From: a virus
Virus record (IMG/VR): IMGVR_UViG_3300023223_001537
Span: 1-41,392 of that record
Strand: one strand, 5' to 3'
Length of the DNA stretch: 41,392 nt
The notes beneath the pieces are model-generated. The model did no database searches. It saw nothing but the letters and a program-made list of their open reading frames with translations, and was not told the origin of the DNA. A program made the position numbers and the translations under genes. Shown here piece after piece: positions 1,705 through 24,574 of this stretch (position 1 is the stretch's first letter; every line of letters begins with the position of its first letter).

Positions 1705-2082
1705 CTATTTCTTAATGTATGGATTTTCGATTTTTCCATTCAAAATTTCATATTCATTAAACATTTCAATAAATTTAGGATCAATCGTTTCTGGGTCTAA
1801 ATTATAAGGAATATCTTTTATTTTTTGTCTCAAATTATTCTTATATTGAATTCTAATAGTATTAATTTTTGCTTTAATTTCATTCTCGTCCATTTTTTTC
1901 TCCACTTTAAAGGATTCTTTTCCATTATGACAATGCCTTACATTCCAGCCTACTCCCCATGAAGTACAATTGGTTCTGCAATAATGACAACCGTCTGATG
2001 CTGTATTTCCAGGATGAGCAGATGAAAGAATGGGTACCGAAAGAAAGATGAAAGATGCGCAAATCAAAATTAATTTTTTCAT
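1705..2082 (-). CDS. Secreted YHYH-domain protein
   Basis: GGAGG RBS before the internal Met (MKKLILICASFIFLSVPILSSA signal peptide). The motif HPGNTASDGCHYCRTNCTSWGVGWNVRHCH matches the YHYH-domain pattern. Confidence 0.6.
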   Translation of the reverse strand: MKKLILICASFIFLSVPILSSAHPGNTASDGCHYCRTNCTSWGVGWNVRHCHNGKESFKVEKKMDENEIKAKINTIRIQYKNNLRQKIKDIPYNLDPETIDPKFIEMFNEYEILNGKIENPYIKK

Positions 2083-2142
2083 AAAACCTCCTCGGTTAAA
2101 TAGGGTTTGCTGCCAATTCCTTAATTGCATCAAGAAATTTAT

Positions 2143-2616
2143 TTAAAGCAACTTGCGAAGTCTATCTTTTTCCAGCGATAACTCACAAATAATAAATGAA
2201 TGAAATGCGTGAAATATAAGTTGAATTCCATCTTTAGAATGTCCCCATTCCTTTACTGCTACTTTATGTTCTAAATATTTTTTAAAAAGTTGTTTATTAA
2301 GTGAGTTAAGGACAGGTTTGAATAAATCTTCATCAAGTTTGTTTGGATGTCCCGCCGTATAATGGGCGAAGCTGTTGCGCAATATTATAAACCTTCTCAA
2401 GGTCTTTAAAAGAGCGGCGTCTAAACCGAATGCTGCTAATAAATTGAGTCTTGGTGAAATAAATATTACCTGAATGCTAATATGTTCGTTTTTTTCGTGA
2501 ATAGATTCTAAAATATCATTAACAATTCTTTCTATATTTATAGAACATCTCAGTAATAGATCAATAGAATCGTCACCACTTACCATTAAAACAAAATTTT
2601 CTTTATTAAAAGTCAC
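2143..2616 (-). CDS. HEPN-motif protein (predicted all-alpha, R-N-S-F-A-H = Rx4H); candidate RNase, Abi or toxin
   Basis: The LRNSFAH motif is encoded at 2362..2379 on the minus strand, and I checked it codon by codon. The ORF is 157 aa with a GTG start and AAGGAA upstream. An alternative ATG lies at 2586. Confidence 0.5.
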   Translation of the reverse strand: MTFNKENFVLMVSGDDSIDLLLRCSINIERIVNDILESIHEKNEHISIQVIFISPRLNLLAAFGLDAALLKTLRRFIILRNSFAHYTAGHPNKLDEDLFKPVLNSLNKQLFKKYLEHKVAVKEWGHSKDGIQLIFHAFHSFIICELSLEKDRLRKLL

Positions 2617-2666
2617 CTTTTATATTCCTTTATTTATTTAAAGTAATATGATTTATGTCGTGAACC

Positions 2667-2879
2667 TTATCTTGTATGACACTCTGGACAGCAGTGAAAG
2701 CATCCATCAACATTGTTGAATCCTTCTTCTTTTGCTTTTCTAACTGCACCACGACAAGTAGCAAAAGTGCCTAAATCATGTTGGTTTTTTTTGTCTGGTA
2801 AATTATTACATGTATCTAGGTTGTGCACTTCATGTTCCCCTGAAGATTGAGGATTTTTATTAACGCAAAATTTTGGCAT
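2667..2879 (-). CDS. Small Cys/His-rich protein (70 aa), C-terminal CxxCCxxCH cluster, probable metal binding
   Basis: GGAGA RBS. Sequence ...GEHEVHNLDTC...DGCFHCCPECHTR. It lies immediately upstream of the HEPN-motif gene on the same strand, with a 50-nt gap. Confidence 0.5.
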   Translation of the reverse strand: MPKFCVNKNPQSSGEHEVHNLDTCNNLPDKKNQHDLGTFATCRGAVRKAKEEGFNNVDGCFHCCPECHTR

Positions 2880-2954
2880 TTTTAAGTCTCCACGGTTATT
2901 GGTTTTCGCTGCCTATTATTTACAGCAACATTATTGTCGCCGTATAAAGTTTAT

Positions 2955-3176
2955 TTATTTCTCTTCCATTTTCCCAGAACTGGACCTCTTTTGTAGAACA
3001 ATCTGATGAGTGGAACATACACCCGTTGATACTGTACCTGTAAAACCGTTCATAACCGCTCCGCATTTTTCAATGATTAATCCTCCGGCACCATCGCTTG
3101 AAATATTGGTTACATAAGGTCCCGCTGAAGAACAACCGCTCAAAACGATGAGAAATGTAAAAATAAATTTTTTCAT
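2955..3176 (-). CDS. Small lipoprotein (73 aa)
   Basis: GAGG RBS. Signal peptide with lipobox (IVLSGC). Confidence 0.55.
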   Translation of the reverse strand: MKKFIFTFLIVLSGCSSAGPYVTNISSDGAGGLIIEKCGAVMNGFTGTVSTGVCSTHQIVLQKRSSSGKMEEK

Positions 3177-3399
3177 GGAATAACCTCATAATGTAAATAA
3201 TTAAGCAACCCCAAGTCCTTTGACAGCGAGGAAAAGGAAAGGTTTTAGACACGAAGAAGGGAATTGATTTATATATCGTGAATGGTTGCTGAATGAAGCC
3301 CTGAGGTAGCCTTATCAGCCCAATTGCGACAGAGCCAGCCCTCAGTTTTAGACGCGGATAATCCGTCCTGGAAACCGCGAATGGCTCCTCAATTAGACT

Positions 3400-3726
3400 T
3401 TAATTTTTTGGATTCTTAACAGAACTTCCTTCTTTTGTAAGTAAATAAACAGCCTTGGCAAAATCCTCTCTACTACGCTCATTGGCTTCGTATTCAGCGT
3501 GTAATTTTTCCTTTCTTTTAGCTTCAGCAGCCTTTTCTGCCTCTGTAGGGATACAAGCTTTTGGCGGTCTGTCATCGATACATAAAACTAAACTAAAAAA
3601 TCCGCCAAGAATACACATCAAACCCCAGAAAATCATAGCATTATAAAAACAGAGCAGCATACCGATGAAAAAACAAAACAAAACAAACAAGATTCCCATG
3701 ATATTTCTCCTGGCTTTACGATTCAT
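3400..3726 (-). CDS. Two-helix membrane protein with a charged C-terminal tail
   Basis: Hydrophobic segments GILFVLFCFFIGMLLCF and IFWGLMCILGGFFSLVLCI. The ATG at 3726 is preferred over the TTG at 3735. It is the first gene downstream of the repressor. Confidence 0.5.
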   Translation of the reverse strand: MNRKARRNIMGILFVLFCFFIGMLLCFYNAMIFWGLMCILGGFFSLVLCIDDRPPKACIPTEAEKAAEAKRKEKLHAEYEANERSREDFAKAVYLLTKEGSSVKNPKN

Positions 3727-3822
3727 CGTTTTCAAGAACGCTCAGTTTAGCTCGACTTGGCTTTGAATCAATGGTTTTTTCGTTAATTAATAATTCTAAT
3801 TGTCGTATGGGCTTGCCTTGCG

Positions 3823-4236
3823 TTAACTCATATTTCCTTGGTGAACCTTTTTTGGGTGGTTGGGAATTGTAAGGTCATCCAGTTTTTGTTGAAGACCTTT
3901 AATTTCTAATTCTTGGCTTTTGATTAATTTTCCCTGGGTCTTAACATGTTGCTCATGAGACTGAACTAGCAATAGAAAACCCTCAATTCTACGTTGAATC
4001 TTCTCTTCAATATAAGCGGGTTCATTTCTGCCAGAAACCAGATAATCTATGGTGGTATTGCATAGTTTACTGACCGAAAAAAGCAATTCCAAAGATGGTT
4101 TAACCTTGCCTAATTCCACATGACTGACATAGGTTTGACCAAATCCAAGTAATTCGGCAAACTTCTCTTGAGTTTTGTCTCCCCGTAATTCTTTGAATCT
4201 TTTACCGATATCTTTTTTATCGAAATTTTTATTCAT
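3823..4236 (-). CDS. XRE/cI-type HTH repressor
   Basis: HTH pattern IGKRFKELRGDKTQEKFAELLGFGQTYVSHVELGKVKPSLELLFSV. It is divergent from the early operon. Confidence 0.75.
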   Translation of the reverse strand: MNKNFDKKDIGKRFKELRGDKTQEKFAELLGFGQTYVSHVELGKVKPSLELLFSVSKLCNTTIDYLVSGRNEPAYIEEKIQRRIEGFLLLVQSHEQHVKTQGKLIKSQELEIKGLQQKLDDLTIPNHPKKVHQGNMS

Positions 4237-7661: not shown

Positions 7662-7711
7662 GGTGTGTCCCCAGGGGGATTTGAACCCCCGTCGCCGGCG
7701 TGAAAGGCCGG
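7662..7711 (-). other. attP core: 3-prime half of a tRNA-Glu(UUC) gene (anticodon arm to acceptor end), not a complete tRNA
   Basis: The reverse complement reads CCGGC-CTTTCAC-GCCGG-CGAC-GGGGG-TTCAAAT-CCCCC-TGGGGAC-A. This gives a UUC anticodon, a 4-nt variable loop and a T arm. The upstream sequence cannot form the D arm or the 5-prime acceptor strand. Confidence 0.75.
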
Positions 7712-7791
7712 TTTACTATTTAATCACTATCCCACACCGCCCAGCAAATCAATCCCTTTCAGACAATCCATCCTTCCTTTGGTACCCAGAG

Positions 7792-10386: not shown

Positions 10387-11232
10387 ATGATTAAAGAGGT
10401 CATTGGTGACTTTACATTGTATCTAGGCGATTGTCTGGAGGTTATGGAGAAAAAGAAAAATGAAATTGAAAATGAAAATATTAAATTAGTATTACCAGAT
10501 CCTCCTTATGGGAAGACAGCGTGTGAATGGGATTCAATTATACCTATTGACGATATGTGGGAAAAATTAAACAAATTGATAGATGATACCGTTCCCGTAT
10601 GTATTTTTGGCATTGAGCCGTTTAGCTCGAGAATAAGAATCGCAAATATTGAAAAATATAAATATGATGTGATTTGTGTTAAGTCAATTCCAACTGGGCA
10701 TTTGAGCGCGACAAGAAAGCCTCTACGCAACGTGGACATAGTAAGCGTTTTTTATACAAATCAATGTACATACAATCCGCAATATACTTTAGGCGCAAAT
10801 AAAGTTTGGTCACGCAGTAATACCACTCTTTCAGTAAATTATGGCGGTCATAAAAATAGTGGGAAAAAGATTGTTTCGAGGGGAATTGATAATAGTTTAA
10901 ATTATCCGCGTGAATTTTTATTTTATCAAAGTTCTTATGCTGCAAGAGAAGAGAAATATCATGATACACAAAAATCCATTACATTATTAGAATTCTTTAT
11001 AAAAACATATACAAATGAAAAAGAAACGGTTTTTGATTTTACAATGGGGAGCGGTTCAACTGCTATTGCATGTTACAGACTAAACCGTAAATTTATTGGG
11101 ATAGAAATTGATGAAGAGTATTTTCAAAAAACTTGTGAAAGGATTACTGAAGAAAAAAGACAACTTAGGCTATTCGTTGACGAACCAACTTATGAACAAT
11201 CAACGTTAAAAATGTCAAAAAATAGCCTTTGA
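10387..11232 (+). CDS. DNA methyltransferase (DPPY type, probably N6-adenine), no cognate nuclease seen
   Basis: Motif IV VLPDPPYG and AdoMet motif FDFTMGSGSTAIAC. Confidence 0.8.
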   Translation: MIKEVIGDFTLYLGDCLEVMEKKKNEIENENIKLVLPDPPYGKTACEWDSIIPIDDMWEKLNKLIDDTVPVCIFGIEPFSSRIRIANIEKYKYDVICVKSIPTGHLSATRKPLRNVDIVSVFYTNQCTYNPQYTLGANKVWSRSNTTLSVNYGGHKNSGKKIVSRGIDNSLNYPREFLFYQSSYAAREEKYHDTQKSITLLEFFIKTYTNEKETVFDFTMGSGSTAIACYRLNRKFIGIEIDEEYFQKTCERITEEKRQLRLFVDEPTYEQSTLKMSKNSL

Positions 11233-11519: not shown

Positions 11520-12386
11520 GTGTCTATTGAGTTCCAACAAGCCGGCATTCATGATGTTTCGAGGTCCAACCCACGCGATATCCTCTATATCAAGGGCAAT
11601 GAAACCACCCCTGGAAGCATCCGTTTCCATTTCATAACCCGCACCTCTCCTGATCCTCAAGAAACCTTTGCTCATATTGAATTGAGAGATTCAGGCGTTT
11701 GGAATGATACCGGCCTGATATTTTCAGGAGGATCGATTAGTTTAGGCAATGATTTAAAGGCTTCTGCTGTCGGCCTTTTTCTTTCAAGTTTTAATGAATC
11801 CTCTGATCCGATAGTAGGAACAAGATCACTTTACCCCCATATTAATTATGATCCTCTTGACGGTACGCAAGATAACCCAACTCGAATCCCTCCAAAGACA
11901 GGTTTTCCCGTTATGCCTGTTCTCAAACCAGAACTTTTTGATGTTTTCCCTGACCCAGATACGGGGGAAGTGGTAGCAAATACAATAAGTATTGTTTTTC
12001 CTCCTCTGTCTGAAAGAGTAATCTTTCGCTCACAACATCAATCGGGAAATGTATTACCAACCACTGAAGTCCAGGTAACTTATACAGACAATGGGGTGGT
12101 CATAAATCGTTTTAATGTTCCAGCATCCCTCTTTTTCGCAGGTCAAAAATTTGATCTTCTTTTTGAAGATTTTGGATTCGGGGGTTCAAACATAATTCAG
12201 ACATTTACCAGCACGTCTTTATTTTCTTTAAGAACAAATGCAGGCGGAAATTTTATTACTCTTCAAGATGGTTATCTGCAGGACACAGTTGATGTAATTC
12301 TCGAAGAGTTTGTCATTACCAATGACCTTTCCTTGCTGTTTAATAATAACGATCCTTTTTTTATAGTCCATAGTCGGTTCCCATAA
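11520..12386 (+). CDS. Hypothetical virion or tail-associated protein
   Basis: Long ORF with a TAATG overlap onto the fibre gene. GTG start with a weak RBS, so the start is uncertain. Confidence 0.5.
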   Translation: MSIEFQQAGIHDVSRSNPRDILYIKGNETTPGSIRFHFITRTSPDPQETFAHIELRDSGVWNDTGLIFSGGSISLGNDLKASAVGLFLSSFNESSDPIVGTRSLYPHINYDPLDGTQDNPTRIPPKTGFPVMPVLKPELFDVFPDPDTGEVVANTISIVFPPLSERVIFRSQHQSGNVLPTTEVQVTYTDNGVVINRFNVPASLFFAGQKFDLLFEDFGFGGSNIIQTFTSTSLFSLRTNAGGNFITLQDGYLQDTVDVILEEFVITNDLSLLFNNNDPFFIVHSRFP

Positions 12387-15300
12387 TGACAAATCAATTC
12401 CATAGAAATTTAATAGATTTTGACAACCATGCTGTAAACGCTGCTGAATATGCGACGATTGCCGCAAGGGATGCAGATACAACATTCAATGAAGCTGTTG
12501 CGAATATAAACAAAATTGTCAAAGTTCTCGATAACGGATCTGCTGAAGTCGCCTATTTTATTCTTGTTAGTGTTTCTCCCGACGTCTGGTTAGAAATCAC
12601 AAGTACATTAAGTAATTCCTTCCTTGAATTAACCGATACGCCGAATTCCTATTCTGTACCAGCTTCCGCTGGGAAAGTTCTGCAGGTTAATGCCGCCGAA
12701 ACTGGAGTCGAATTTTCCACCACTTTAATTGTTGAACCGGCAAATGACAGGGTCAAGATAGGCGATTCAGCAGCCGCACTGACAGATTTAACATTATTTC
12801 AAGATACCGGAACCCTGAGAGGATTAACGTTTTCAGGAGATGCAATAGTAGGTAGTGGAACCACCGATGGAATAACTCTTTCTATGGGGCAGAATAGTGT
12901 TGATGACAAGATTTTGCTTTTTGGGCAAACAAGCGATATAGCCGTCAGTGGCGAGTCAACGTTGGCCATTAATGTGGGGGTCGACCTGCCGTCTATTTTT
13001 GGCATTAATCCTATATTAACAATTGCTAGAAATATTGGAATAGGTGGCCCTATCTCCAATGTGGGAGTGGGTTTCGCGCCTGCCGCAATGCAAGCGGATG
13101 TTTTAGCAAAGATGCATATTAAAACGGGCGCAGTTGGAACTGTAGGGGCAATTATTGAAGCAGAAAGCGCTCAAACCGCAGATATATTTAGAATTATTAA
13201 AGACGGCGTTACAGATCCTTTAATGCAAATAACAAAGGATGGCGATGCGGTATTTCAAAGTGATAATGATTTTACTAACGCCTTTGAAGTTAAAAGAGCG
13301 GATGGGACTCTGGTTGTTGCGGTAGACACTAGTAATCGTTTTCTCAATATAACAAACACGACACCTTTGGGTAAATTAGGCATTAGAATTGATCAGGCCA
13401 GCCATGCAGGAATATTTATTCGAGGAATAGACGCACAGACCGGAGAATACCTTAGATTTACAAAGGATGACTTTACAACGATTTCAACTATAGATGGCAA
13501 TGGAAATGTTTTTTTTCGAATGATAGCAAATTCAGTAACCGCTTTTGAACTTACAGATGTGGCAAACGCAACCGTGTTTGATATTGATTCCACAAATAAG
13601 AGGGTTGGAATTGCTAACAATGCTCCTTCATTTAATTTGGATGTTACAGGAGATGGTCGCTTTACAACCAATCTGACAGTGGGGGCTGATTTAACCGTCG
13701 ATACAGATACGTTATTTGTGGATGCCTCATTAAATAGAGTAGGAATAAATATTCTCTTACCATTAGAAGCATTGCATGTATTTGGGAATGCCCGGGTAAC
13801 GGGAGCTTTCATTGATTCTTCAGGGGATCCCGGGACCAGCGGTCAAGTTTTAACAAGTACTATAACTGGAACAGATTGGGCAAGTCCAATTGGGGATGTA
13901 ATAGGGCCAGCATCATCAACGGACAATGCTATTTCCAGATTTAATGGAGTAACCGGAAAGATAATTCAAAACACTTCACAGGTAACTATAAATGATGACG
14001 GCCATATTGTAGCCCAAAATACTGTCAATTCCACAGGCGCATTCGTGGTTTTAGATGTAGCAGCCACTTCGGTTTTTTTCATCAACACAATAGCGAATGA
14101 AGTCACATCCAGAGATTTATTTGTTGTCGGAGATTTGAATGTTACCGGGGCTTTTGAAGACAGCAGTAGCAGTGCTGGCATAAGCGGTCAAATTTTATCT
14201 AGTTTAGGTACCGGGACTGATTGGATCAATAATACAATTGGTGATGTGGTGGGTCCGGCATCGGCTACCGTTAATGCTATCGCAAGATATGCGGCAGCGG
14301 ATGGGAAATCAATTAAAAATAGCACCGTCTTGGTAGCAGATAATGGAACCGTAACGATACCTCCGGGTGGGAATTTTGTTGTCGATACAGATACTTTTAT
14401 AGTGGAAGGTACACTTGATAGAGTTTCCATTGGAGCTATAGCAACGCCATTAACTGATTTTACTATTTTTCAAAGAGCTGTAGACCAAAAAGGAATAACA
14501 CTTTCTGGAGAACCAGTAATAGGAACTGCCACAAATTTGGATGGAGCCACCATATTTTTAGGTCATAGTACTGCCTTTAATCGGCAAATATTTATTGGCG
14601 AGACAAGTGACTTGGGGAATTCGTTAAAGAATGGCCTCTCGCTGATTGTAGGTCCTGATGTTCCGTCATTTTCTGGTGTTTCTATGACTGGAGTACTCAG
14701 GAATTTTATCGTGGGCGATCTTGGCGTAAAAGTTGGAGTAGGTTTTATAGCAAGCGCTGCAGTTCAAGCAGATATAATTGGAACCTTACATGTTCAAACT
14801 AACGCCGTCGATGTTGCTTTAATTGTTGAAGGTAGGAACGTCCAAACAGCAGATATATTTCAAATTATTAGAACCGGAACTACACCACCATTGATGAAAG
14901 TTACCGAAGCCGGCAATGTTGAATTTAGGAATGAAACGGATAGTGTAACAGGATTCCAGATTCTTGATGCCGATGGTGGCGTTCCTATGTTTAATGTTGA
15001 CACAATAAATGAAAGAATTGGAATAAATAATGCCGCCCCATCCGTTACCTTTGATGTTCTTGGGGATGCGCAAATCAATGGGCAGACAAGAATAAATAAT
15101 TCTTCTCCTTTGGGGGCTACTTTTTTAACTGATTTTACAGTTTTCCAAACGATGGGAACTGACAAAGGAATAACACTTTCAGGTAATGCGCCCACGACTT
15201 CAAGCATAGTTGAAGGAGCTACTCTATTTTTGGGCAATACTGCCGCAAATGTTCAACAACTATTTATTTGCCAAAAAACTCACCTTGGTAATGCGGCAGA

Positions 15301-16309
15301 ATCTGCATTGAGAATTATTACCGGATTACCAGTTCCAAATATATCAGGGATAAATCCTACGGCCACAGTTGGAAAGCATATAGATTTAGGAACTCCAAGT
15401 TTAAATGTTGGCGTAGGTCATCCAGCAACGGCGGCAACAACTCAAGCCATTTTGGATGGAGTAAAACTTTTTATCAGGTCTGGCGCAACCACAAATGTTG
15501 GTCTGGTTACGCAGGGCGAAGCAAGTCAAACCGCCGATTTATTCCAAGCGAGAAATTCTTCCGCCGTTAGTTTGGTCAAGATAGAAGAAGATGGCGACAT
15601 TATTGTAAGTGCTGTTGGCAGCAGTTCTGGGACGCCAAGAAAAATTCAAATGCTGAATGCGCCAACTGAGTTTAACCAATTTTTATTTGGCGGCGTAACC
15701 GGCATGCAATCTGCCAATGGTCATGGTTTGGATATTTTTGCATTTCATACTATAAGGATTTTTGGCGATACAACTGCTGGTATCCCACCTTTTGAGATAG
15801 TATCCGATGTAGGCGTTCAAATAGTAAATACGATTGTTTCAAACCCCGCTTTTGTCATTGATGGAGCCGCTTCTCAAACTGGCTCATTACTGCAATTAAG
15901 GACTAACGTTCCCGTAGTTTTATCAGAGTTTGACGAAGCTGGAAAATTAGTTGTTGGAGGAACCAAATTAGCAATGGTTGCCGATAGGTCAATGCTGGAT
16001 GTCAGAGGAAGCGTTGCTGTTGAGAGACTAGCATCGGCTGGAGCCGTTAGCACAGTCGATGAAGTGATCATAGCGGTTACCGGAGCGATGCCTGCAGGAG
16101 GAGTGATCGTAACAATATCAACCGCCGATATTGTTTTAGGAAGAATATTTATTATTAAGGATGAGTCGGGAACGGCAACTGTTCCAAATCCCATTACAGT
16201 ACAAGGGCAAGGTGGGGAAACAATTGACACACAAACGAGCGTTCCAATAACCGCAAATTTTGGCAGCCTTCGTCTTTATAGTGACGGCACAAATTTATTC
16301 ACATGGTGA
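12386..16309 (+). CDS. Very large tail fibre protein (1307 aa) with an internally triplicated module
   Basis: N-terminal fibre motif ELTDTPNSYSVPASAGKVLQVNAAETGVEF. Three modules start LTD(L/F)T(L/I/V)FQ at about aa 132, 689 and 914, each containing SQTADxFQ-like strings. Confidence 0.8.
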   Translation: MTNQFHRNLIDFDNHAVNAAEYATIAARDADTTFNEAVANINKIVKVLDNGSAEVAYFILVSVSPDVWLEITSTLSNSFLELTDTPNSYSVPASAGKVLQVNAAETGVEFSTTLIVEPANDRVKIGDSAAALTDLTLFQDTGTLRGLTFSGDAIVGSGTTDGITLSMGQNSVDDKILLFGQTSDIAVSGESTLAINVGVDLPSIFGINPILTIARNIGIGGPISNVGVGFAPAAMQADVLAKMHIKTGAVGTVGAIIEAESAQTADIFRIIKDGVTDPLMQITKDGDAVFQSDNDFTNAFEVKRADGTLVVAVDTSNRFLNITNTTPLGKLGIRIDQASHAGIFIRGIDAQTGEYLRFTKDDFTTISTIDGNGNVFFRMIANSVTAFELTDVANATVFDIDSTNKRVGIANNAPSFNLDVTGDGRFTTNLTVGADLTVDTDTLFVDASLNRVGINILLPLEALHVFGNARVTGAFIDSSGDPGTSGQVLTSTITGTDWASPIGDVIGPASSTDNAISRFNGVTGKIIQNTSQVTINDDGHIVAQNTVNSTGAFVVLDVAATSVFFINTIANEVTSRDLFVVGDLNVTGAFEDSSSSAGISGQILSSLGTGTDWINNTIGDVVGPASATVNAIARYAAADGKSIKNSTVLVADNGTVTIPPGGNFVVDTDTFIVEGTLDRVSIGAIATPLTDFTIFQRAVDQKGITLSGEPVIGTATNLDGATIFLGHSTAFNRQIFIGETSDLGNSLKNGLSLIVGPDVPSFSGVSMTGVLRNFIVGDLGVKVGVGFIASAAVQADIIGTLHVQTNAVDVALIVEGRNVQTADIFQIIRTGTTPPLMKVTEAGNVEFRNETDSVTGFQILDADGGVPMFNVDTINERIGINNAAPSVTFDVLGDAQINGQTRINNSSPLGATFLTDFTVFQTMGTDKGITLSGNAPTTSSIVEGATLFLGNTAANVQQLFICQKTHLGNAAESALRIITGLPVPNISGINPTATVGKHIDLGTPSLNVGVGHPATAATTQAILDGVKLFIRSGATTNVGLVTQGEASQTADLFQARNSSAVSLVKIEEDGDIIVSAVGSSSGTPRKIQMLNAPTEFNQFLFGGVTGMQSANGHGLDIFAFHTIRIFGDTTAGIPPFEIVSDVGVQIVNTIVSNPAFVIDGAASQTGSLLQLRTNVPVVLSEFDEAGKLVVGGTKLAMVADRSMLDVRGSVAVERLASAGAVSTVDEVIIAVTGAMPAGGVIVTISTADIVLGRIFIIKDESGTATVPNPITVQGQGGETIDTQTSVPITANFGSLRLYSDGTNLFTW

Positions 16310-16315
16310 AAAAAT

Positions 16316-18262
16316 ATGACAGGAAGTAATTTTAATACACACGATATGCTCCCTTCAAGACAGGGCGATAATATTCTTGAGGTTCATAGTTTAGGTGATT
16401 TACCGACGGCTATTGGAGGCATCCGAGATTTTGAACTGAATCAGGCATTAGATATAAGAGCCACCCTGTTTGAAACAAATGTGTGGCGTTGGCCTGATGA
16501 GTCTTTTATTTTTATTTGGACAAAATATTCCAACCAAGCAACCATTTTTTATTTAGGGTCAGATACTTTCATTCAATGTGCAGGGCAGGCTGGAACTACC
16601 ATTTTTAGAAATACAAATATTTTCGGCACAAGTGCCGCTTCGACAGCAAAGCTTTTGGACCTTACTGCGAGTTTAAATGTTGGTCCCGCAAGTTTTGGGG
16701 TTCAAGATACGGCATTTGTTGGCTTCCCTGGTGGGGCACGATATAACAATTTCCCGAATGGAATTATCAGGGGAATGGTTTGGTTTAACAATGTGTTTGC
16801 ATCGACAATAAGCGAAAGTATTACCTTTCAGAATTGCGGTGTTTTTGAATTGGGTGGTCAGCTGATGATCGGCATTGGAAACACGAATCAGTCTTTATTA
16901 TCTATTACGGGAGATGCCACAGCCCAAGGAAGGATCCATGATACTGACTGGAATGTACCGGGTACGCAGTCAGGGATATATCTTGGATCAAATATCACGA
17001 CTTTTGCGGCCATGGGAACTTTTGCCGTAAGTCAGCCCGGCACGGGAACATTTTTTAAGACTCAAGAATTCGGCGCATTTCAAAGCGTTGCAGATGGATC
17101 AACCACCGGAACAGTATCATCTGTTTCAGGAAGAGTAACTGCCTTTGGAACCTTTGCGGTTTTCAATGCGACTACAACGCCATTAGAGGGGGATGTTATC
17201 AACCATGTGGGATTCGCTGAAGCCACCTATAACGGTAAATTTAAAGCCCATAGGGTGGATGCGGGTGTCAGTTATCAAATAGCCTTATTTCCATTTCAGC
17301 AGCCTGTTTTACAACAGGGAGCCACGACAGGAGGCACATGGGATCGGGAATACACTGTAATAAATTCAACAGATACCTCTGAACTTAGAATCGGATTCGG
17401 AGTAGAAATACAGAACAGTTCAGACAGCTTTTATGATGGTGTTCATTCGGTGCTTGAGCTTGTCGATAATGTAAGTTTTTCGATTCAAGCAGATTTTCAA
17501 GGTTCCACATCCGTAACCGGAGATTTTACGGTCAAATCTTTAGATGAGACAAATATCCAAGTAGATGTTGACCGGGCTGGAGCGCAAAAATCCAGCGAAA
17601 CGATTGCTTTGGGATCGATTAATGCTCGAACTGGAACTACAGCTATTACGCAAGATGTATATGATGATCTTAATGTTAGCGGCTTCCTTGAAAATATAGT
17701 AGTGGAACGATTTGAATTAACTGATACGACTTTAGGTACATTCACATATAGGGGACAAAACAAATTTCAAGGTTTTGTGAATGGGGCCTTGTCAGCATTA
17801 AAAACTGGAGCCACGCAAAATTATAGATTTGCAATGTCCTTAAATGGTGGAATCCCACTTTTTACCGCTATTGCTTCCACGGCCATTACAAGCGTTATTG
17901 ATTCTCCAACCAGTCCAGGAACAGCTCGGTTTGTTCATGCAGGGACATCTCCTCCTGTAGGTTCGATTGCAACGACAACAGGCTTTACAACCAACACGCT
18001 TTATAATACGAGGGAACTCGTTACCTTTTCGGATGCGACTAATTTTGAACTAAATGGTGTAGCATTTGGAACAACTGAAACAGGCAACTTCACTGCAGCC
18101 ATCGCTAATTATATTCCTATGGAAGTGAAGACAACAAAAGTTGTTGTTCCTCTTCTTTTTATGGCGCAGTTGGAAACTGGCGATACAATACAAATAATGG
18201 TAGCTGGGGATGGTCATGCACAAGATTTAACAATAACCGATTTTACATTTGGAGTATTCTAA
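16316..18262 (+). CDS. Second fibre or receptor-binding-like protein (648 aa)
   Basis: Gly/Thr/Ser-rich beta-type composition. It lies directly after the 1307-aa fibre gene. Confidence 0.55.
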   Translation: MTGSNFNTHDMLPSRQGDNILEVHSLGDLPTAIGGIRDFELNQALDIRATLFETNVWRWPDESFIFIWTKYSNQATIFYLGSDTFIQCAGQAGTTIFRNTNIFGTSAASTAKLLDLTASLNVGPASFGVQDTAFVGFPGGARYNNFPNGIIRGMVWFNNVFASTISESITFQNCGVFELGGQLMIGIGNTNQSLLSITGDATAQGRIHDTDWNVPGTQSGIYLGSNITTFAAMGTFAVSQPGTGTFFKTQEFGAFQSVADGSTTGTVSSVSGRVTAFGTFAVFNATTTPLEGDVINHVGFAEATYNGKFKAHRVDAGVSYQIALFPFQQPVLQQGATTGGTWDREYTVINSTDTSELRIGFGVEIQNSSDSFYDGVHSVLELVDNVSFSIQADFQGSTSVTGDFTVKSLDETNIQVDVDRAGAQKSSETIALGSINARTGTTAITQDVYDDLNVSGFLENIVVERFELTDTTLGTFTYRGQNKFQGFVNGALSALKTGATQNYRFAMSLNGGIPLFTAIASTAITSVIDSPTSPGTARFVHAGTSPPVGSIATTTGFTTNTLYNTRELVTFSDATNFELNGVAFGTTETGNFTAAIANYIPMEVKTTKVVVPLLFMAQLETGDTIQIMVAGDGHAQDLTITDFTFGVF

Positions 18263-18278
18263 AAGAAAGGAATATAAA

Positions 18279-18416
18279 ATGAAGCCAGAAGATGCAATAA
18301 ATTTGCTTGATCAGATCTGCGCTCAGGTCAATTTGAGCCGGGAAATGCATGATAAAGTGAAAGAAGCGATTCAATCATTAAAGAACGAGCATAAAAAGAA
18401 AAAAGAAGAGGGATAA
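18279..18416 (+). CDS. Small hypothetical protein (45 aa), absent from the ORF track because it falls below the size cut-off
   Basis: AAAGG RBS. ATG at 18279 and TAA at 18414..18416. Helical, charged sequence. Confidence 0.35.
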   Translation: MKPEDAINLLDQICAQVNLSREMHDKVKEAIQSLKNEHKKKKEEG

Positions 18417-18485
18417 TGGTATAATAAAAGCCTGTAGAAACTAGAGTGAATCTAGTTCCAGGCTAACCTTATTCCCCGGAGGGAC

Positions 18486-18836
18486 ATGCGATTCAATATG
18501 TTTGTTTCTAACCATTCAACTGATTTGAAGTATGGTGACAATGATCTTTCATCTCTCAAGACAGTCAAAATTTATGACGGGAATGGGAACTTAAAAGAAA
18601 CTGTCACAGCAGAAATACTAACAGATGATGAAGCATTAGGCCGGAAGGGAACATATGGAGAGAAGGAATGCCGCGTTTGTCATAATATGTTTACTTTATA
18701 TAAAGGTAAGTTTAAAAGAAAACAAAAAACCTGTAGTGACTGTATTGAAAAGAGGCCATTAATAGGAGATTCTTTGCGAAGAAAACCGCTTAAATCAGAA
18801 AAATCTAACGGGAGGACACCCAAATGCCAACACTGA
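18486..18836 (+). CDS. Zinc-ribbon-containing hypothetical protein
   Basis: GGAGGG RBS. CxxC...CxxC (CRVCH...CSDC). Confidence 0.5.
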   Translation: MRFNMFVSNHSTDLKYGDNDLSSLKTVKIYDGNGNLKETVTAEILTDDEALGRKGTYGEKECRVCHNMFTLYKGKFKRKQKTCSDCIEKRPLIGDSLRRKPLKSEKSNGRTPKCQH

Positions 18837-19237
18837 AATACAAGAAGGGTTATAAATACCAGTTAACACAAGATTTCCAAATACAGACAGATATTGAACA
18901 CCATTTTTTGATTAATACGCATTTTATAGATTTGGATTTGGAAGGAAATCTATTAATTAAAGAGGACTATTGTTGGGATGGTCCCAGCGGCCCTACAATT
19001 GACACAAAAAATTTTATGAGAGGATCCCTTGTACATGACGCTCTCTATCAATTGATGAGAATGGGGAAATTACCTCTGACATGGCGAGATCATGCAGATA
19101 AACTGCTCAGAAAGATTTGCTGTGAAGATGGCATGTGCTGGATCCGCGCATTCTGGGTTTATCGCGCTCTCTACAGATTTGGTAAAAGTTCAGCTATGCC
19201 TGAAAATAAAAAAATATTATGGGTGATCAATTATTAA
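18824..19237 (+). CDS. DUF1353-like protein
   Basis: Pattern DYCWDGPSGPTID...GSLVHDALYQLMR...ADKLLRKI...YRALYRFG. Confidence 0.6.
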   Translation: MPTLKYKKGYKYQLTQDFQIQTDIEHHFLINTHFIDLDLEGNLLIKEDYCWDGPSGPTIDTKNFMRGSLVHDALYQLMRMGKLPLTWRDHADKLLRKICCEDGMCWIRAFWVYRALYRFGKSSAMPENKKILWVINY

Positions 19238-19315
19238 AAGGATAAATCATGCCAAAACATCAAAATGGAACGACTCGTAAACGAAAAAAGAAAAAGAAAG
19301 TGAAGGGTAAATAAA

Positions 19316-19642
19316 ATGCGTAAATTTATTTGGATCGTGGCATTTGTATTTGCGGTTTCCTACGTTCAGATTGCCAGTGCGAATGGCGAAGAGGCTAGCG
19401 GTAAAAAATTTCAGGGACATTTTAGCTGGGCTCTTGACCAACTTAAAGAAGGAAAAATATTATATCGAGGTCGCTGGGAAAGAAAAGATATGTGGGTAAA
19501 GATTAAAACACCAGAAGTAAACGAGACAATGACTTCCCCATATATCTACATGAAGAGCGTTGATGATGAATATGTCCCTTGGTTGCCTTCTCAGTTCGAC
19601 CTAATGGCCGAAGATTGGATGTGCAGGAATTGTAGGAAATAA
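19316..19642 (+). CDS. DUF2829 (Tad2-family) protein with a cleavable signal peptide
   Basis: Signal peptide MRKFIWIVAFVFAVSYVQIASA|NG. Domain pattern FSWALDQLKEGKILYRGRW...PYIYMKS...VPWLPSQFDLMAEDW. Confidence 0.6.
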   Translation: MRKFIWIVAFVFAVSYVQIASANGEEASGKKFQGHFSWALDQLKEGKILYRGRWERKDMWVKIKTPEVNETMTSPYIYMKSVDDEYVPWLPSQFDLMAEDWMCRNCRK

Positions 19643-19664
19643 CCTAAAAAGAAATGAGGTAATC

Positions 19665-19883
19665 ATGGCAGTTGATTTTAGTCAGGCTTTAACGGATTTA
19701 AAGGAAGGCGACAAGGTGAAGCGTTCGGGTTGGGTTAATGACCCTGCCTATATTGAAATGTTTGGGCCTTTGGCCGGTTCTTCGCCTGAAGATACAATCA
19801 TGGTATTTCATTCACAAGGAGTATTTCCCTGGAATCCTCAAAATGTGGATGTTTGCGCTGATGATTGGGAAACTGTAGTTTAA
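19665..19883 (+). CDS. DUF2829 (Tad2-family) protein, cytoplasmic form
   Basis: DFSQALTDLKEGDKVKRSGW...FPWNPQNVDVCADDWETV. GAGG RBS. Confidence 0.65.
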   Translation: MAVDFSQALTDLKEGDKVKRSGWVNDPAYIEMFGPLAGSSPEDTIMVFHSQGVFPWNPQNVDVCADDWETVV

Positions 19884-19902
19884 TTAATGAGGAAAAAGGA
19901 TA

Positions 19903-20325
19903 ATGGCAGGAACGCAGACTGGTTTCAGCGCAGAACCTCAACGGGGTATCGCATATGAATTTTATATTGGGGTATTGGATGCCATTACCGGGAATTTTAG
20001 AATAGATCCGACAATACTCGCAGGTGATTTTAGGGTTTCAAAGGATGGTGGCGCATTTGAAAATTTAGCGACATTGCCAACCGTTCAACCTACTGGGTCA
20101 TCTAATATTAGGGTGAATTTGTCAGCATTCGAAATGGATTCGAATAAAATAGTGGTAGAAGGTCTTGATAATCCTGTAGGATTTCAATGGGATGGCGTGA
20201 GAGTTTTTATTGACGCACCAAATTCAGGCCCAGCCCAAGCAGCAAAAGTTGTGCTAGATGGATTTACTTTAGCCCGGGACAATACCAAAGGATTAAGAAG
20301 ATCTGCGGGTAACAGAATCAAATAA
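19903..20325 (+). CDS. Hypothetical protein
   Basis: GAGGA RBS. Coding-like composition. Confidence 0.5.
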   Translation: MAGTQTGFSAEPQRGIAYEFYIGVLDAITGNFRIDPTILAGDFRVSKDGGAFENLATLPTVQPTGSSNIRVNLSAFEMDSNKIVVEGLDNPVGFQWDGVRVFIDAPNSGPAQAAKVVLDGFTLARDNTKGLRRSAGNRIK

Positions 20326-20339
20326 CAAGGAGGAAGTTA

Positions 20340-20783
20340 ATGACTACTATTGCGCAAGGAAGAGTAAGCGGATTGGTTGCTACAAGGTGGTTTGATAATG
20401 CCGCTATACCGATCAATCAGGGTAATGTGGCCCAAGATGTAGACTGGTTTCCAAATGATTTAAGGCCAAGCCAGGAAGCTAGAAAACGTTTTGCTTTGGA
20501 TGACGCTTTTACGGTTGTAAAACATACAATTCAAATACAGGTGAATGGTGCCGGCGTCATAGCGACTGTCATCTTGAAATTAACATCTCAAGATACTCCT
20601 ACCCCCACCGTAAACTTCTCAAAAAGTATTTTACTCAATGGTGGCGTAGCTTTAGCCGAAGAAGCTGGGAGTCAATTTGATATAATATTAGTAAAAGGGG
20701 CAAGTTATAATATTCAGCACAACGCAGGTGGCATGATAAATCCCGCAGTTTTTATCACTGAATCTTTTAATGTAGATATTTAA
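20340..20783 (+). CDS. Hypothetical protein
   Basis: AAGGAGG RBS. Confidence 0.5.
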   Translation: MTTIAQGRVSGLVATRWFDNAAIPINQGNVAQDVDWFPNDLRPSQEARKRFALDDAFTVVKHTIQIQVNGAGVIATVILKLTSQDTPTPTVNFSKSILLNGGVALAEEAGSQFDIILVKGASYNIQHNAGGMINPAVFITESFNVDI

Positions 20784-20784
20784 A

Positions 20785-20985
20785 ATGGCAAACATCGCCG
20801 GATATCCTAGCGCCATAATAAGCGGGAGTCCTGGTAAAAGTGGAAGAATTCAGCAAACAGTTACTGTTCCTTTGAGTCCTTTGACAGTAAGTGATAATAA
20901 ACGCCTTACCACTTCTGAAAAGGATCAATTGAAAGATTTTTCCGCAAATAAGCCGGCAACCACATCAACACCTATAACGCCATAG
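20785..20985 (+). CDS. Short protein sharing a 24-aa N-terminal module with the next gene
   Basis: MANIAGYPSAIISGSPGKSGRIQQ compared with MANVAGYPSAVLSGPPGKSGRIQG. Confidence 0.45.
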   Translation: MANIAGYPSAIISGSPGKSGRIQQTVTVPLSPLTVSDNKRLTTSEKDQLKDFSANKPATTSTPITP

Positions 20986-21006
20986 GGGAAAAATGGAACA
21001 GTCAAT

Positions 21007-21759
21007 ATGGCAAATGTAGCTGGATATCCCAGCGCAGTATTATCAGGACCACCGGGCAAAAGCGGAAGAATTCAGGGATTAGCGCCTGTTAGTACTTTTA
21101 CTCCATTAGATATTCTTCCTATTATAGGATGGTGGGACGGTGCTCAAGGAATAACTCTCAATGGTCCTGATGTTTCTCAATGGGATGATCAGAGTTCAAA
21201 CGCAAATAATCTCATTCAAGCAACAGCCACCAAACAACCATTATTTGTCAATCCAGGTGGGGTTCCGCCTCTTCTTCGATTTGATAAAGCTACTTCAGAA
21301 AGAATGCTTACGGCTGGTTTTGCCGGAGGAAATAAAACTCAACCTAACACAATAATGATTGTAGCCCAAAAGAGATCAGGGACAGACGGTAGCTATTTAT
21401 TTGATGGGACTGGAGCAGCAAGACATGCGGTAGCTGATTTTACTGGATTTGGTATGTTTGGTGGACAAATTTTAGTTCATGCGCCACTTGACCAGGTAAA
21501 AAGAATATTTGTATGTATTTTTGACATCCTCGTCGGTAAGTTTTATTTTGACGGCGGTGTCGGCACAACCGGTAATGTTGGTTCTTTCACTTGGGGTGCT
21601 TTAAGTTTATGTTCAAGATTTGGTGATACCAGTTTTGGGGATTATGATGTTTGGGAAATAACTGGTCATAATAAAAGATTATCTATTGATGAACTAAATC
21701 AATTGGGAACCTTTCTTGCGAACAAACATAGCTTAACGTGGACAACAATTACTTCTTAA
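21007..21759 (+). CDS. Protein with the shared N-terminal module plus a LamG/concanavalin-like pattern
   Basis: WWDGAQGITLNGPDVSQWDDQSSNANNLIQATATKQPLF...RFDKATSERM resembles jelly-roll lectin-type domains found on phage appendages. Confidence 0.5.
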   Translation: MANVAGYPSAVLSGPPGKSGRIQGLAPVSTFTPLDILPIIGWWDGAQGITLNGPDVSQWDDQSSNANNLIQATATKQPLFVNPGGVPPLLRFDKATSERMLTAGFAGGNKTQPNTIMIVAQKRSGTDGSYLFDGTGAARHAVADFTGFGMFGGQILVHAPLDQVKRIFVCIFDILVGKFYFDGGVGTTGNVGSFTWGALSLCSRFGDTSFGDYDVWEITGHNKRLSIDELNQLGTFLANKHSLTWTTITS

Positions 21760-21775
21760 ATAGATAGGAAACACA

Positions 21776-21967
21776 ATGGGACAAGCAATATTTGGCGCAA
21801 ATAATTTAAATAATCCTGGAAATACTGTCATCGGCGGTTCCAGTATGGTCAGGGAAAAAAGAATGAAAGATATTAAAGCAAGTTCCCGCGTTGCTAAATC
21901 AGACGTTAAAACGGCTCAGGCCAAAAGTAACGTGATTAAAGGATTAACAGGTAGGGTGACACCATGA
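21776..21967 (+). CDS. Hypothetical small protein
   Basis: ORF with an ATGA overlap to the next gene. Confidence 0.4.
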   Translation: MGQAIFGANNLNNPGNTVIGGSSMVREKRMKDIKASSRVAKSDVKTAQAKSNVIKGLTGRVTP

Positions 21968-22539
21968 CGAATAAACTTGTAGTAATTCAAAGAGGTGAAT
22001 CATTGCCCTTCAAATTTGACCGTGGAGGAGCTTCCATTGAACAATGGACATGCGTTATAAAAGTCAAACAGAAACCCGATGATTTACCGGATATTGCAAG
22101 AACTATCCCATCTGATGATGATAGAGCCTTTAGCGGTTTTCTTACAAGAACTGAGACTTTAAATCTGATAGAAGGATTATGGTATTTGACGGGGGTTTTG
22201 ACAAATGTAAGCACAGATGAGCAAGAAGAAATACCGGTCCGATTCCAGGTGAGCAAAACGTGGTCAATACCCAATATGGTTTCCCAAGTGATAGCCACTC
22301 CTGCCGGATCTGCAGGACCATTTACAACGATGGTTAGCGTTAATCTTATGACAGGAACGCCTGGAGCCACAATTCATTTTACGATTGATGGGTCTGAACC
22401 ATCAACATCTTCGCCTATATTTACCAGTGACATAATATTTGTAAATGCTGGAAGTCCTCATACACTTAAAGCATTTGCGGTAAGGGACGGCTTTGTCGAT
22501 AGTGATGTTTTAACAGAAATATATGTCGTGAACCCATAG
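21964..22539 (+). CDS. Protein with a C-terminal chitobiase/Fn3-associated-type domain pattern
   Basis: GATIHFTIDGSEPSTSSPIFTSDIIF...HTLKAFAVRDGFVDSDVLTEIY. Confidence 0.5.
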   Translation: MTNKLVVIQRGESLPFKFDRGGASIEQWTCVIKVKQKPDDLPDIARTIPSDDDRAFSGFLTRTETLNLIEGLWYLTGVLTNVSTDEQEEIPVRFQVSKTWSIPNMVSQVIATPAGSAGPFTTMVSVNLMTGTPGATIHFTIDGSEPSTSSPIFTSDIIFVNAGSPHTLKAFAVRDGFVDSDVLTEIYVVNP

Positions 22540-23306: not shown

Positions 23307-23359
23307 AAAAGAGTAGTTAAAATAATCCGTCCGGGTAACTGAAATAAAAAGGCTTGGAC

Positions 23360-24574
23360 ATGAGCGATTATATTGACTTGTCAGAATTAAAACCTGACAA
23401 AAAGAATGCCAGAAAACACAATCCACGGAATATCGGAATGATTACCCAGGCCATTCAGGAAATTGGAGTATCAAGATCAGGGGTAATTGATGAGGATGGC
23501 AATATTCTTGCCGGCAATGGTACCTATGAAGCCTTGAGCGAGGCAGGAATTAAAAAAGTCAAGGTGGTTGATGTTGATGGTGAAGAATGGGTAGTAGTTC
23601 GCAGGAAGGGATTGTCAGAGGCTGAAAAGACCAAATTATCTTTATATGATAACAGGACAGCCGAAATCGCTGATTGGGATGTTGATATTCTTAAAGAAAT
23701 ATATGAAGAGAGTCCTGAAATCCTTGACGGATTATTTTATGAAGATGAAGTGGATGCACTTCTGGAAGATGTTGATAAGGACCCCGGTGAACTAGAAGGA
23801 GAGGATGATGTTCCTCAAATACCAGAAGAACCGGTCACTCAACGTGGGGATATTTACCTACTTGGCAAACATCGCCTTATGTGTGGTGATTCCACAAATC
23901 ACGATGATGTGGAAATGCTTATGAATGGTAAAAAGGCTGACATGGTATTCACAGATCCTCCCTATAATGTGGATTATGGAAATATAAAACATCCCAAATT
24001 CAAGATGAGAAGCATTAAAAATGATAATCAGGCCCCTCATGAATTCAAGCAATTTTGCGAAAAGTTTGCCAATACAATAAAACAATTCTGTAATGGGATT
24101 GTATATGTATTCGGGGCGCCAAATCTAGACGGAAGAATAATGTTTTCAATATTGGATAATCTTTTCCATTGTTCAACTACGATAATATGGAATAAGGATC
24201 AGTTTACATTGGGACGAGGTAAATACCAGAATAAATATGAGCCATTTTGGTTCGGATGGGTAAATGATGGCAGTCTTTTTACAAATGATAGAAAATTGAC
24301 CAATGTGTGGGATATTGAGAGACCAAAATCGAGCGACTTACATCCTACAATGAAACCAGTCAAATTGGTTGAAACTGCTTTAATTCACGCATCGAAGACT
24401 GGATCTATTGTTTTTGACTTATTTGGTGGAGCAGGATCAACAATAGTGGCTGCTGAAAAACTCAAAAGAAAATGTTACATGATGGAGGTTGAGCCAAAGT
24501 ATTGTGACGTCATTGTTGATAGATACAAGGATTTATTTCCTGATAAACCTGTTGAAAGGATAAAGCATGGCTGA
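23360..24574 (+). CDS. ParB-like nuclease domain fused to a DNA methyltransferase (DPPY type)
   Basis: N-terminal LKPDKKNARKHNPRNIGMITQAIQEIGVSRSGVIDEDGNILAGNGTYEA. Methylase motifs VFTDPPYN and FDLFGGAGSTIVAA. The ATG at 23360 is preferred over the TTG at 23354. Confidence 0.8.
   Translation: MSDYIDLSELKPDKKNARKHNPRNIGMITQAIQEIGVSRSGVIDEDGNILAGNGTYEALSEAGIKKVKVVDVDGEEWVVVRRKGLSEAEKTKLSLYDNRTAEIADWDVDILKEIYEESPEILDGLFYEDEVDALLEDVDKDPGELEGEDDVPQIPEEPVTQRGDIYLLGKHRLMCGDSTNHDDVEMLMNGKKADMVFTDPPYNVDYGNIKHPKFKMRSIKNDNQAPHEFKQFCEKFANTIKQFCNGIVYVFGAPNLDGRIMFSILDNLFHCSTTIIWNKDQFTLGRGKYQNKYEPFWFGWVNDGSLFTNDRKLTNVWDIERPKSSDLHPTMKPVKLVETALIHASKTGSIVFDLFGGAGSTIVAAEKLKRKCYMMEVEPKYCDVIVDRYKDLFPDKPVERIKHG

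Follow-up and report, generated by a model that had tools for sequence, protein, structure and literature searches.

Tad2 of phage SPO1 (Gp34.65; PDB 8SME/8SMF/8SMG/8WJE) is the founding Thoeris anti-defence sponge of the Tad2-like family (Pfam PF11195, DUF2829). The ligand glycocyclic ADP-ribose (gcADPR) is held by W25, N26, W73 and D79, with contributions from T78, S76, D67 and H71, and N26 touches the phosphates (10.1101/2023.05.01.538930). In HgmTad2/AcrIIA7 (PDB 8KBI-8KBM, 9KZR) the diphosphate is bound by N22 and G23, and binding is lost in the mutants W21A/N22A (for gcADPR) and S90A/T92A/D93A; the same study did not reproduce an anti-CRISPR activity of AcrIIA7 (10.1101/2023.11.15.567273). 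MoTad2, from a Myroides odoratus prophage (PDB 9EIB/8V3E), binds His-ADPR and the cyclic mononucleotides cUMP/cCMP and shows that the fold can switch its ligand and use a second pocket; the ligands of the family comprise His-ADPR, N7-cADPR, cUMP/cCMP and cyclic dinucleotides, sometimes bound in such a second pocket (10.1101/2025.08.24.671296). The present study concerns two Tad2-like genes that lie in tandem at positions 19316-19883 of IMG/VR virus record IMGVR_UViG_3300023223_001537, the first encoding a 108-residue protein that begins with a predicted secretion signal and the second a protein of 72 residues. The whole stretch analysed, 41,392 bp with a GC content of 40%, is called the window below and seems to be a complete JGI contig. 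To our knowledge, the cytoplasm is where all characterised Tad2, Tad1 and Acb2 sponges act, since the signals of the Thoeris, CBASS and Pycsar systems are made and sensed there.

The two open reading frames (ORFs) are on the + strand, at 19316-19642 (ATG at 19316) and 19665-19883, with a gap of 22 nt between them, and each is preceded by a Shine-Dalgarno-like sequence, GAAGGG at 19302-19307 (+ strand, 8 nt before the ATG) for the 108-residue protein and GAGG at 19656-19659 (+ strand, 5 nt before the ATG) for the 72-residue protein. A first-pass annotation of this DNA had placed both products in DUF2829, and the profile search agreed: against a Pfam gathering threshold of 25 bits, the 108-residue protein scored 74.9 bits (E 7.6e-21, residues 35-102, profile positions 2-71 of 73) and the 72-residue protein 55.8 bits (E 6.7e-15, profile positions 2-73 of 73). 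Both proteins also matched PHROGs 1048 and 872, and their matches among the PDB sequences were SPO1 Tad2, MoTad2, HgmTad2/AcrIIA7 and SptTad2. The AlphaFold2 models (single chain, family alignment), with mean predicted local distance difference test (pLDDT) values of 85.8 for the longer and 89.1 for the shorter protein, both contain the N-terminal helix, antiparallel beta-sheet and short C-terminal helix of the Tad2 fold. All Foldseek matches in the PDB at E < 1e-3, 24 and 22 respectively, were Tad2 or AcrIIA7 chains; those of the longer protein included 8wje, 8smf, 9eib and 8kbi, and the shorter model reached a TM-score of 0.8 to SPO1 Tad2. The Tad2-like domain of the 108-residue protein occupies codons 36-102 (19421-19621, + strand; pLDDT 91-95) and is followed by the tail CRNCRK, with a CxxC motif (C103-R-N-C106), and the stop codon (19622-19642, + strand). 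The 72-residue protein, which has no signal peptide or hydrophobic segment, is a minimal form of the family and is predicted to be cytoplasmic. Identity between the two proteins is 29%, below that of either to typical members of the family, and a recent tandem duplication is therefore ruled out; the label of paralogue given at first should accordingly not be taken to mean a fresh copy.

The N-terminus of the 108-residue protein, MRKFIWIVAFVFAVSYVQIASA|NGEEASGKK, was assessed by a heuristic reading of its n-, h- and c-regions. The predicted signal peptide MRKFIWIVAFVFAVSYVQIASA (codons 1-22, 19316-19381, + strand) begins with the n-region MRK, of net charge +2, and continues with the h-region FIWIVAFVFAVSYVQIA (F4-A20), which has 17 residues, a mean Kyte-Doolittle value of 2.2 and no helix breaker. 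At its end A-S-A fills positions -3 to -1 and position -5 is a polar Gln; the early mature region NGEEASG is acidic to neutral. The n-region, the h-region, the -3/-1 residues and the non-basic mature start are thus all those of a Sec signal peptide cleaved by signal peptidase I. In the AlphaFold2 model residues 2-24 form a separate continuous helix, detached from the domain at 36-103, and this helix together with the n/h/c anatomy upholds the Sec-type signal with an ASA|N site that had been read at first. The would-be mature N-terminus is a flexible linker, NGEEASGKKFQGH (codons 23-35, 19382-19420, + strand), which is not conserved in the relative P0002 described below; mean pLDDT is about 59 over residues 21-30, that is, the end of the helix and the start of the linker, and residues 25-35 are unstructured. 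Three other types of signal were considered and rejected: a lipoprotein (signal peptidase II) signal, as a lipobox is lacking and the first Cys is at residue 103; a twin-arginine translocation signal, as the n-region is only MRK and holds no twin-arginine motif; and a signal-anchor-release type, as the h-region abounds in F, I, V and W and not in Gly/Ala. Strongly hydrophobic N-termini were found in five of 56 plausible genes of the window, the other four belonging to a secreted Cys-rich protein, a lipoprotein, a protein with two transmembrane (TM) segments and a spanin-like protein.

It might be argued that the 108-residue protein is an ordinary cytoplasmic Tad2 sponge, its hydrophobic N-terminus being an artefact, a relic or a membrane-proximal tether. 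The characterised Tad2 proteins all act on cytoplasmic signals (10.1101/2023.05.01.538930, 10.1101/2023.11.15.567273, 10.1101/2025.08.24.671296), and some homologues do seem to be membrane-tethered with the domain inside. This explanation is nevertheless very improbable. The domain begins at residue 36, and no ATG, GTG or TTG occurs in frame between codons 9 and 58; a downstream start therefore cannot give a cytoplasmic full-length domain. Use of such a start, the outcome against which the first-pass annotation had asked its claim to be checked, is further excluded by a strong ribosome-binding site before the same ATG in the relative on contig L001; a site of this kind precedes the ATG in two diverged relatives. 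With a charge of +2 ahead of the h-region and a net charge of 0 behind it, the protein is predicted to take an N-in/C-out topology, the signal peptide appears to be under purifying selection, and the lineage-specific CxxC fits an oxidising compartment. The host is almost certainly diderm, as judged from the P22-type portal, coat and tail accessory proteins of the phage, the hosts of its relatives (Pseudomonas, Ralstonia and enterics) and its spanin-like lysis genes, and in a diderm host a Sec signal would bring the domain into the periplasm. Export of this Tad2 domain, or at least its exposure to the periplasm, is accordingly graded here as highly probable on the strength of the predicted sequence features.

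The conservation of the gene was followed in its close relatives, which are carried by three short metagenomic contigs, L001, L002 and L060. Contig L002 (ENA ERZ23498372) encodes a protein 98% identical to the 108-residue one. Four of the changes are synonymous and two, V8L and V17I in the h-region, are conservative; the same 72-residue gene lies downstream. Contig L060 (JGI 3300023284) covers the last 53 codons of the first gene, with six synonymous and no non-synonymous differences, followed by a second Tad2 gene that is 74% identical and then by a homologue of the window ORF at 19903-20325. The GAGG sequence before the second gene is kept in both contigs. Contig L001 (ENA, from the sample that also gave L002) encodes P0002, which is 52% identical overall to the 108-residue protein. 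The two parts of P0002 differ widely: in the signal peptide 20 of the 22 residues are identical, with 91% nucleotide identity, a synonymous rate (dS) of 0.30 and a non-synonymous rate (dN) of 0.05, the changes being mostly synonymous (3.5 versus 2.5), and in the mature part DNA identity is 60%, protein identity about 45%, dS is saturated and dN is 0.43. The cleavage site of P0002 reads A-N-A, and its 5' untranslated region differs from that of the window and contains a strong ribosome-binding site, AAGGAG, which precedes the homologous ATG by 6 nt. Both the signal peptide and the C-R-N-C tail are retained; C103-R-N-C106 is invariant in the window protein, P0001, P0002 and L060, and occurs in none of the 113 other family members of the alignment, where the columns hold V/I/L or gaps. 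The next gene downstream in L001 (positions 381-542 of that contig) is not a Tad2 gene but a Pro-, Asp- and Glu-rich low-complexity ORF (MSDETNAVVEPEAPATPIPENGSNGDSPP...), and therefore the tandem arrangement is not universal in the lineage. Taken together, the comparisons with L001, L002 and L060 indicate that the gene is under purifying selection and that its signal peptide is translated, having been kept in front of two mature domains that differ greatly.

The same comparisons bear on the idea that the pair arose by duplication of an anti-defence gene and is now neutral or decaying, without a function at present. Both copies do depart from the family consensus at pocket positions, as detailed below, but the ORFs are intact and their folds are predicted with high confidence, the differences from L060 in the first gene are all synonymous, no frameshifts or stop codons were seen in the relatives, the gene order of the pair region is conserved in three contigs from different samples, and the low identity between the copies speaks against a fresh duplication. 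Decay is hardly credible on this evidence.

The rarity of the signal peptide within the family was estimated by wide searches. A HMMER search of 1.84 billion representative proteins gave 2,200 family members at E <= 1e-3, and a profile search of a word-indexed database gave more than 7,300. N-termini were inspected in 269 sequences and in 55 further JGI metagenome and IMG/VR loci, a few percent of the family, and among these no cleavable-type signal peptide was found besides those of P0001 and P0002. The remark made at first that export is odd for this family is therefore confirmed over about 320 sampled members; other exported Tad2 lineages may exist, because the sample covers a few percent of the family. 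A tblastn search of GenBank phages with the 108-residue protein gave 132 matches, none of them over the N-terminus, and single-sequence searches of the word-indexed database returned only two relatives per copy. One remote match, from Pantoea, was the sole result of a scan of one genome per species (185k species) and IMG/VR, and the exact DNA pattern of the segment coding for the signal peptide was absent from IMG/VR and the JGI metagenomes. The profile-based scan (MRKFIWI, D[LM]MAEDW) returned 53 + 1 loci, all through the C-terminal motif and all without a signal peptide. The hydrophobic N-terminus at one locus, L055, was discarded, as it belongs to another ORF, which lies upstream and is cut off by stop codons. 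The Tad2 surveys that were text-searched do not contain the term 'signal peptide', and one of them contains neither 'secreted' nor 'periplasm'; a search of the paper library for DUF2829 together with a signal peptide turned up only one unrelated genome report.

A minority of the family is targeted to the membrane in another way. Four homologues (P0043, P0059, P0100 and P0106) possess membrane anchors, three with an N-terminal and one with a C-terminal TM segment, and in two of the three N-terminal cases RRRKP or RRKPKEK comes after the anchor, so that the domain should lie in the cytoplasm; these two are predicted to be membrane-tethered cytoplasmic sponges. This sub-architecture is apparently not discussed in the Tad2 literature covered. 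Unlike the 108-residue protein, the anchored homologues have no AXA cleavage site and keep the GWNGKG motif of the family, with a domain predicted to be cytoplasmic. Their existence lends some weight to a variant of the topology within export, in which the signal of the 108-residue protein would not be cleaved and would tether the Tad2 domain to the periplasmic face of the inner membrane; the unbroken h-region from F4 to A20 and the continuous modelled helix agree with such an anchor. This variant is rather unlikely, as the site is of a textbook signal peptidase I type with regard to A-S-A, Gln -5 and the acidic to neutral mature start, and is matched by A-N-A in P0002, whereas the anchored relatives carry basic residues after the TM segment and a cytoplasmic domain, so that their topology differs.

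A Tad2 sponge of gcADPR in the strict sense is a homotetramer whose pockets lie at the interfaces between protomers. Pocket positions were mapped on an alignment of 116 sequences, family frequencies being given out of 113 members. The invariant core of the family (R..W, PW, D....DW) is complete in both proteins, as R51, W54, P88, W89, D95, D100 and W101 in the longer one and R20, W23, P55, W56, D62, D67 and W68 in the shorter one. Both resemble SPO1 Tad2 in family and predicted fold (helix alpha1 and the antiparallel sheet; Foldseek E ~3e-7 and 1e-5), at only 31-36% identity. The equivalents of SPO1 W25, W73 and D79 are present in both copies and those of S76 and D67 only in the 108-residue copy, which thus keeps W54, D83, W89, S92 and D95, while the 72-residue copy keeps W23, W56 and D62. 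The remaining contacts are changed: N26 is replaced by E55 in the longer and V24 in the shorter copy, T78 by F or V, and H71 by V or F. In the family, the position of E55 is N in 105/113 members, those of R53 and R56 are each G in 101/113, and that of F94 (T94F) is T, S or A in 101/113. In the 72-residue protein N is changed to V, S to Q and T to V, and the conserved segment SKMT.PYIYMKT is missing. Where a gcADPR pocket has the clamp W-N-G and the motif S-x-T-D, the 108-residue protein reads W-E-R and S-Q-F-D and the 72-residue protein W-V-N and Q-N-V-D; the Asn-Gly diphosphate clamp, found in about 90% of the family, and the adenine-contacting Thr are missing from both. As to the cytoplasmic location expected of a gcADPR sponge, the prediction for the 72-residue copy agrees with it and that for the 108-residue copy does not, and SPO1 Tad2 itself, which is cytoplasmic, lacks the signal peptide, linker and CxxC tail that the longer copy adds.

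MoTad2 ranks third among the PDB sequence matches of the 108-residue protein (E 5.7e-8), behind two SPO1 Tad2 entries, and is effectively the joint best PDB sequence match of the 72-residue protein (E 2.8e-4), but it is cytoplasmic and has the GWNGKG motif, which both window proteins lack. HgmTad2/AcrIIA7, of the same family (E 5.7e-6 and 7.6e-8), differs in the long beta2-beta5 insertion that forms its cyclic-dinucleotide pocket, both window proteins having short loops there, and in its N22/G23 diphosphate clamp. Neither copy, by its pocket residues, is a canonical gcADPR sponge. The view of the first-pass annotation that the 72-residue copy is the canonical one has thus to be given up: it has diverged further than the 108-residue copy, its Pfam score being the lower one and its PDB sequence E-values lying near 3e-4, and both the Asn-Gly clamp and the adenine Thr are gone.

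On this basis we infer the following course of events. Two distantly related Tad2-fold genes would be co-transcribed within a tail-fibre-like block. The 72-residue product would stay in the cytoplasm and, to judge from its relatives in the family, would be a small oligomeric binder of a nucleotide-type immune signal, with an altered pocket. The 108-residue product would be translated from the ATG at 19316 and directed by its signal peptide through Sec, and cleavage, most likely after the ASA that ends at residue 22, would free an 86-residue Tad2-fold domain in the periplasm; should cleavage fail, the domain would be presented at the periplasm as part of a tethered 108-residue protein. The lineage-specific C-terminal CxxC could be oxidised in that compartment. 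The exported domain would then act outside the cytoplasm as a binder or sponge of a small ligand other than the classical gcADPR, a ligand suggested by the retention of W54, W89 and D95 together with the replacement of the Asn-Gly clamp by Glu-Arg; the ligands of the family are diverse, so that a changed pocket would be consistent with a changed ligand. Such a periplasmic, oligomeric small-ligand binder with an oxidised CxxC and a cytoplasmic 72-residue partner is a tentative proposal, plausible but a little short of probable.

Several observations weigh against this proposal. The h-region of 17 residues is long, and an uncleaved signal anchor is possible for this reason. The pocket is not the same in the window protein and P0002 (RWERKD versus AW-GNW, and F94 versus V), which makes a single conserved new ligand less likely. 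The low dS of the signal peptide could reflect recent recombination rather than selection on the signal peptide, two causes that are inseparable with 22 codons. The close relatives come only from the three other short metagenomic contigs, a narrow lineage, and a scan for promoters and terminators gave no element that sets the pair apart as a unit or moron of its own. We also know of no ligand for a Tad2 fold outside the cytoplasm.

The genomic surroundings suggest another role for an exported domain. The pair belongs to a long block of + strand genes (11520-22539) that has the replication/methylase genes on one side and the packaging genes on the other, and directly upstream of the pair the gene at 18824-19237 (+ strand) encodes a DUF1353-like protein, which matches phrog_1158 'tail assembly chaperone' (E 3e-22; Pfam DUF1353 sub-threshold, E 0.012) and puts the pair among tail-fibre-like genes. 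Downstream of the pair are ORFs with duplicated fibre-like N-termini, a match to a virion-structural PHROG and a carbohydrate-binding CHB_HEX_C domain. Llp of phage T5 and Cor of phages phi80 and N15 are small exported lipoproteins encoded beside receptor-binding genes, and the 108-residue protein resembles them as a small exported protein of a diderm-host phage in a tail-fibre neighbourhood. It is conceivable, therefore, that the Tad2 fold was repurposed as a periplasmic superinfection-exclusion or receptor-masking factor that binds a protein or the envelope and is no small-molecule sponge. The phage is temperate (integrase, CI-like repressor), the 108-residue protein has lost the canonical diphosphate clamp, and the two exported relatives do not have a conserved pocket in common, all of which would suit such a role. 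On the other hand, Llp and Cor are lipoproteins of unrelated folds, whereas the 108-residue protein has a signal peptidase I-type signal, no lipobox and a Tad2 fold; W54, W89, D95, D100 and W101 are strictly kept, as would be expected for ligand binding; no promoter or terminator points to expression from the prophage; and no Tad2-fold protein is known to us to work by binding proteins. An exclusion or masking function is for these reasons doubtful, and still a serious competitor of the small-ligand binder proposed above.

Further genes lie in the block. The ORF at 19903-20325 (+ strand, 140 residues) is the syntenic partner downstream of the pair, its homologue following the pair in L060, and has no match in Pfam, PHROG or NCBIfam. 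The ORFs at 20785-20985 (66 residues) and 21007-21759 (250 residues) share nearly the same first 25 residues, MAN[IV]AGYPSA..SG.PGKSGRIQ, and the second matches a virion structural PHROG; the two look like a duplicated N-terminal anchor of a tail fibre or receptor-binding protein, with the first copy truncated. Two very large ORFs, 12386-16309 (1307 residues) and 16316-18262 (648 residues), gave no match in Pfam, NCBIfam, the PDB sequences or GenBank phages (tblastn), except that a 40-residue patch of the 1307-residue protein matches a PHROG of unknown function; their products may be tail spikes, fibres or cargo. The ORF at 18486-18836 (116 residues), which overlaps the start of the DUF1353-like gene, has a CxxC...CxxC zinc-ribbon-like motif and a very basic C-terminus, with no family match. 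In a related Manatee Spring phage a single Tad2 gene is present, in the early replication module.

By its gene content the window is a temperate P22-like podovirus, previously unseen. Its structural genes include a P22 portal (E 2.5e-115), a P22 coat protein (E 1.2e-69) and a scaffold, accompanied by gp4-like and gp10-like tail factors, ejection proteins and a large terminase subunit, and its lysogeny and replication genes are an integrase, an ERF recombinase, a CI-like repressor and a replication initiator. No match was obtained in a near-identity DNA search of window positions 17000-22000 against GenBank phages, and exact-sequence look-ups of the coat protein and of P0270 returned no record. 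The nearest relatives of the coat protein, 37-43% identical, are freshwater metagenomic phages and phages of Pseudomonas and Ralstonia. A probable lysis cassette at 726-1669 consists of a 98-residue i-spanin-like protein with an N-terminal TM segment and a coiled coil, a 152-residue DUF5675 protein (PF18925, E 3.5e-24) that is a candidate endolysin, and a short o-spanin-like lipoprotein (MRIIISLIIMTILNINSGC...) embedded in the ORF 1382-1669; it resembles a two-component spanin system, and no clear holin was recognised. The minus-strand block 1705-4236 contains lysogeny and moron genes, with the CI-like repressor at 3823-4236 (minus strand) and several envelope-targeted products, among them a secreted Cys-rich protein (MKKLILICASFIFLSVPILSSA|HPGN...), a 73-residue lipoprotein with an LSGC lipobox and a two-TM protein. 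A tRNA-like element (Rfam RF00005, 31.6 bits, without a call by ARAGORN) lies on the minus strand at 7666-7727, roughly 280 nt downstream of the integrase gene. Its anticodon arm (UUC, Glu), its T-arm and its 3' acceptor are intact, but a D-arm is missing and the 5' acceptor strand is mismatched; the element probably represents the attP core, with a host tRNA-Glu as its origin. Two genes for N6/N4 DNA methyltransferases (PF01555), at 10387-11232 and 23354-24574, the second with an N-terminal extension, probably encode anti-restriction methylases.

It is tempting to speculate that the exported domain remains a sponge and intercepts a nucleotide signal or metabolite in the periplasm or the medium, for example immune nucleotides that come from lysed neighbours, before they re-enter a cell, while the 72-residue partner covers the intracellular pool. 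Pycsar toxicity is indeed set off when cCMP or cUMP is supplied from outside (10.1101/2025.08.24.671296). We consider this possibility quite improbable; if it were true, immune signals would have an extracellular phase that is contested by phages.

The putatively exported Tad2 described here is, as far as can be judged from sequence, a genuine variant of a well-known anti-defence family with an unusual architecture, found in a narrow metagenomic lineage, and not a new system. Its predicted mature domain of 86 residues is a compact construct. The retention of a secretion signal under purifying selection leaves two readings: the fold may have been taken over for some unrelated task in the envelope, or a ligand worth sequestering may exist outside the cytoplasm, and either reading broadens the meaning of 'DUF2829 / Tad2-like' annotations, which are now read as anti-Thoeris by default. 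Pocket residues, beyond the Pfam match, need to be checked before proteins of PF11195 are labelled as anti-Thoeris sponges.

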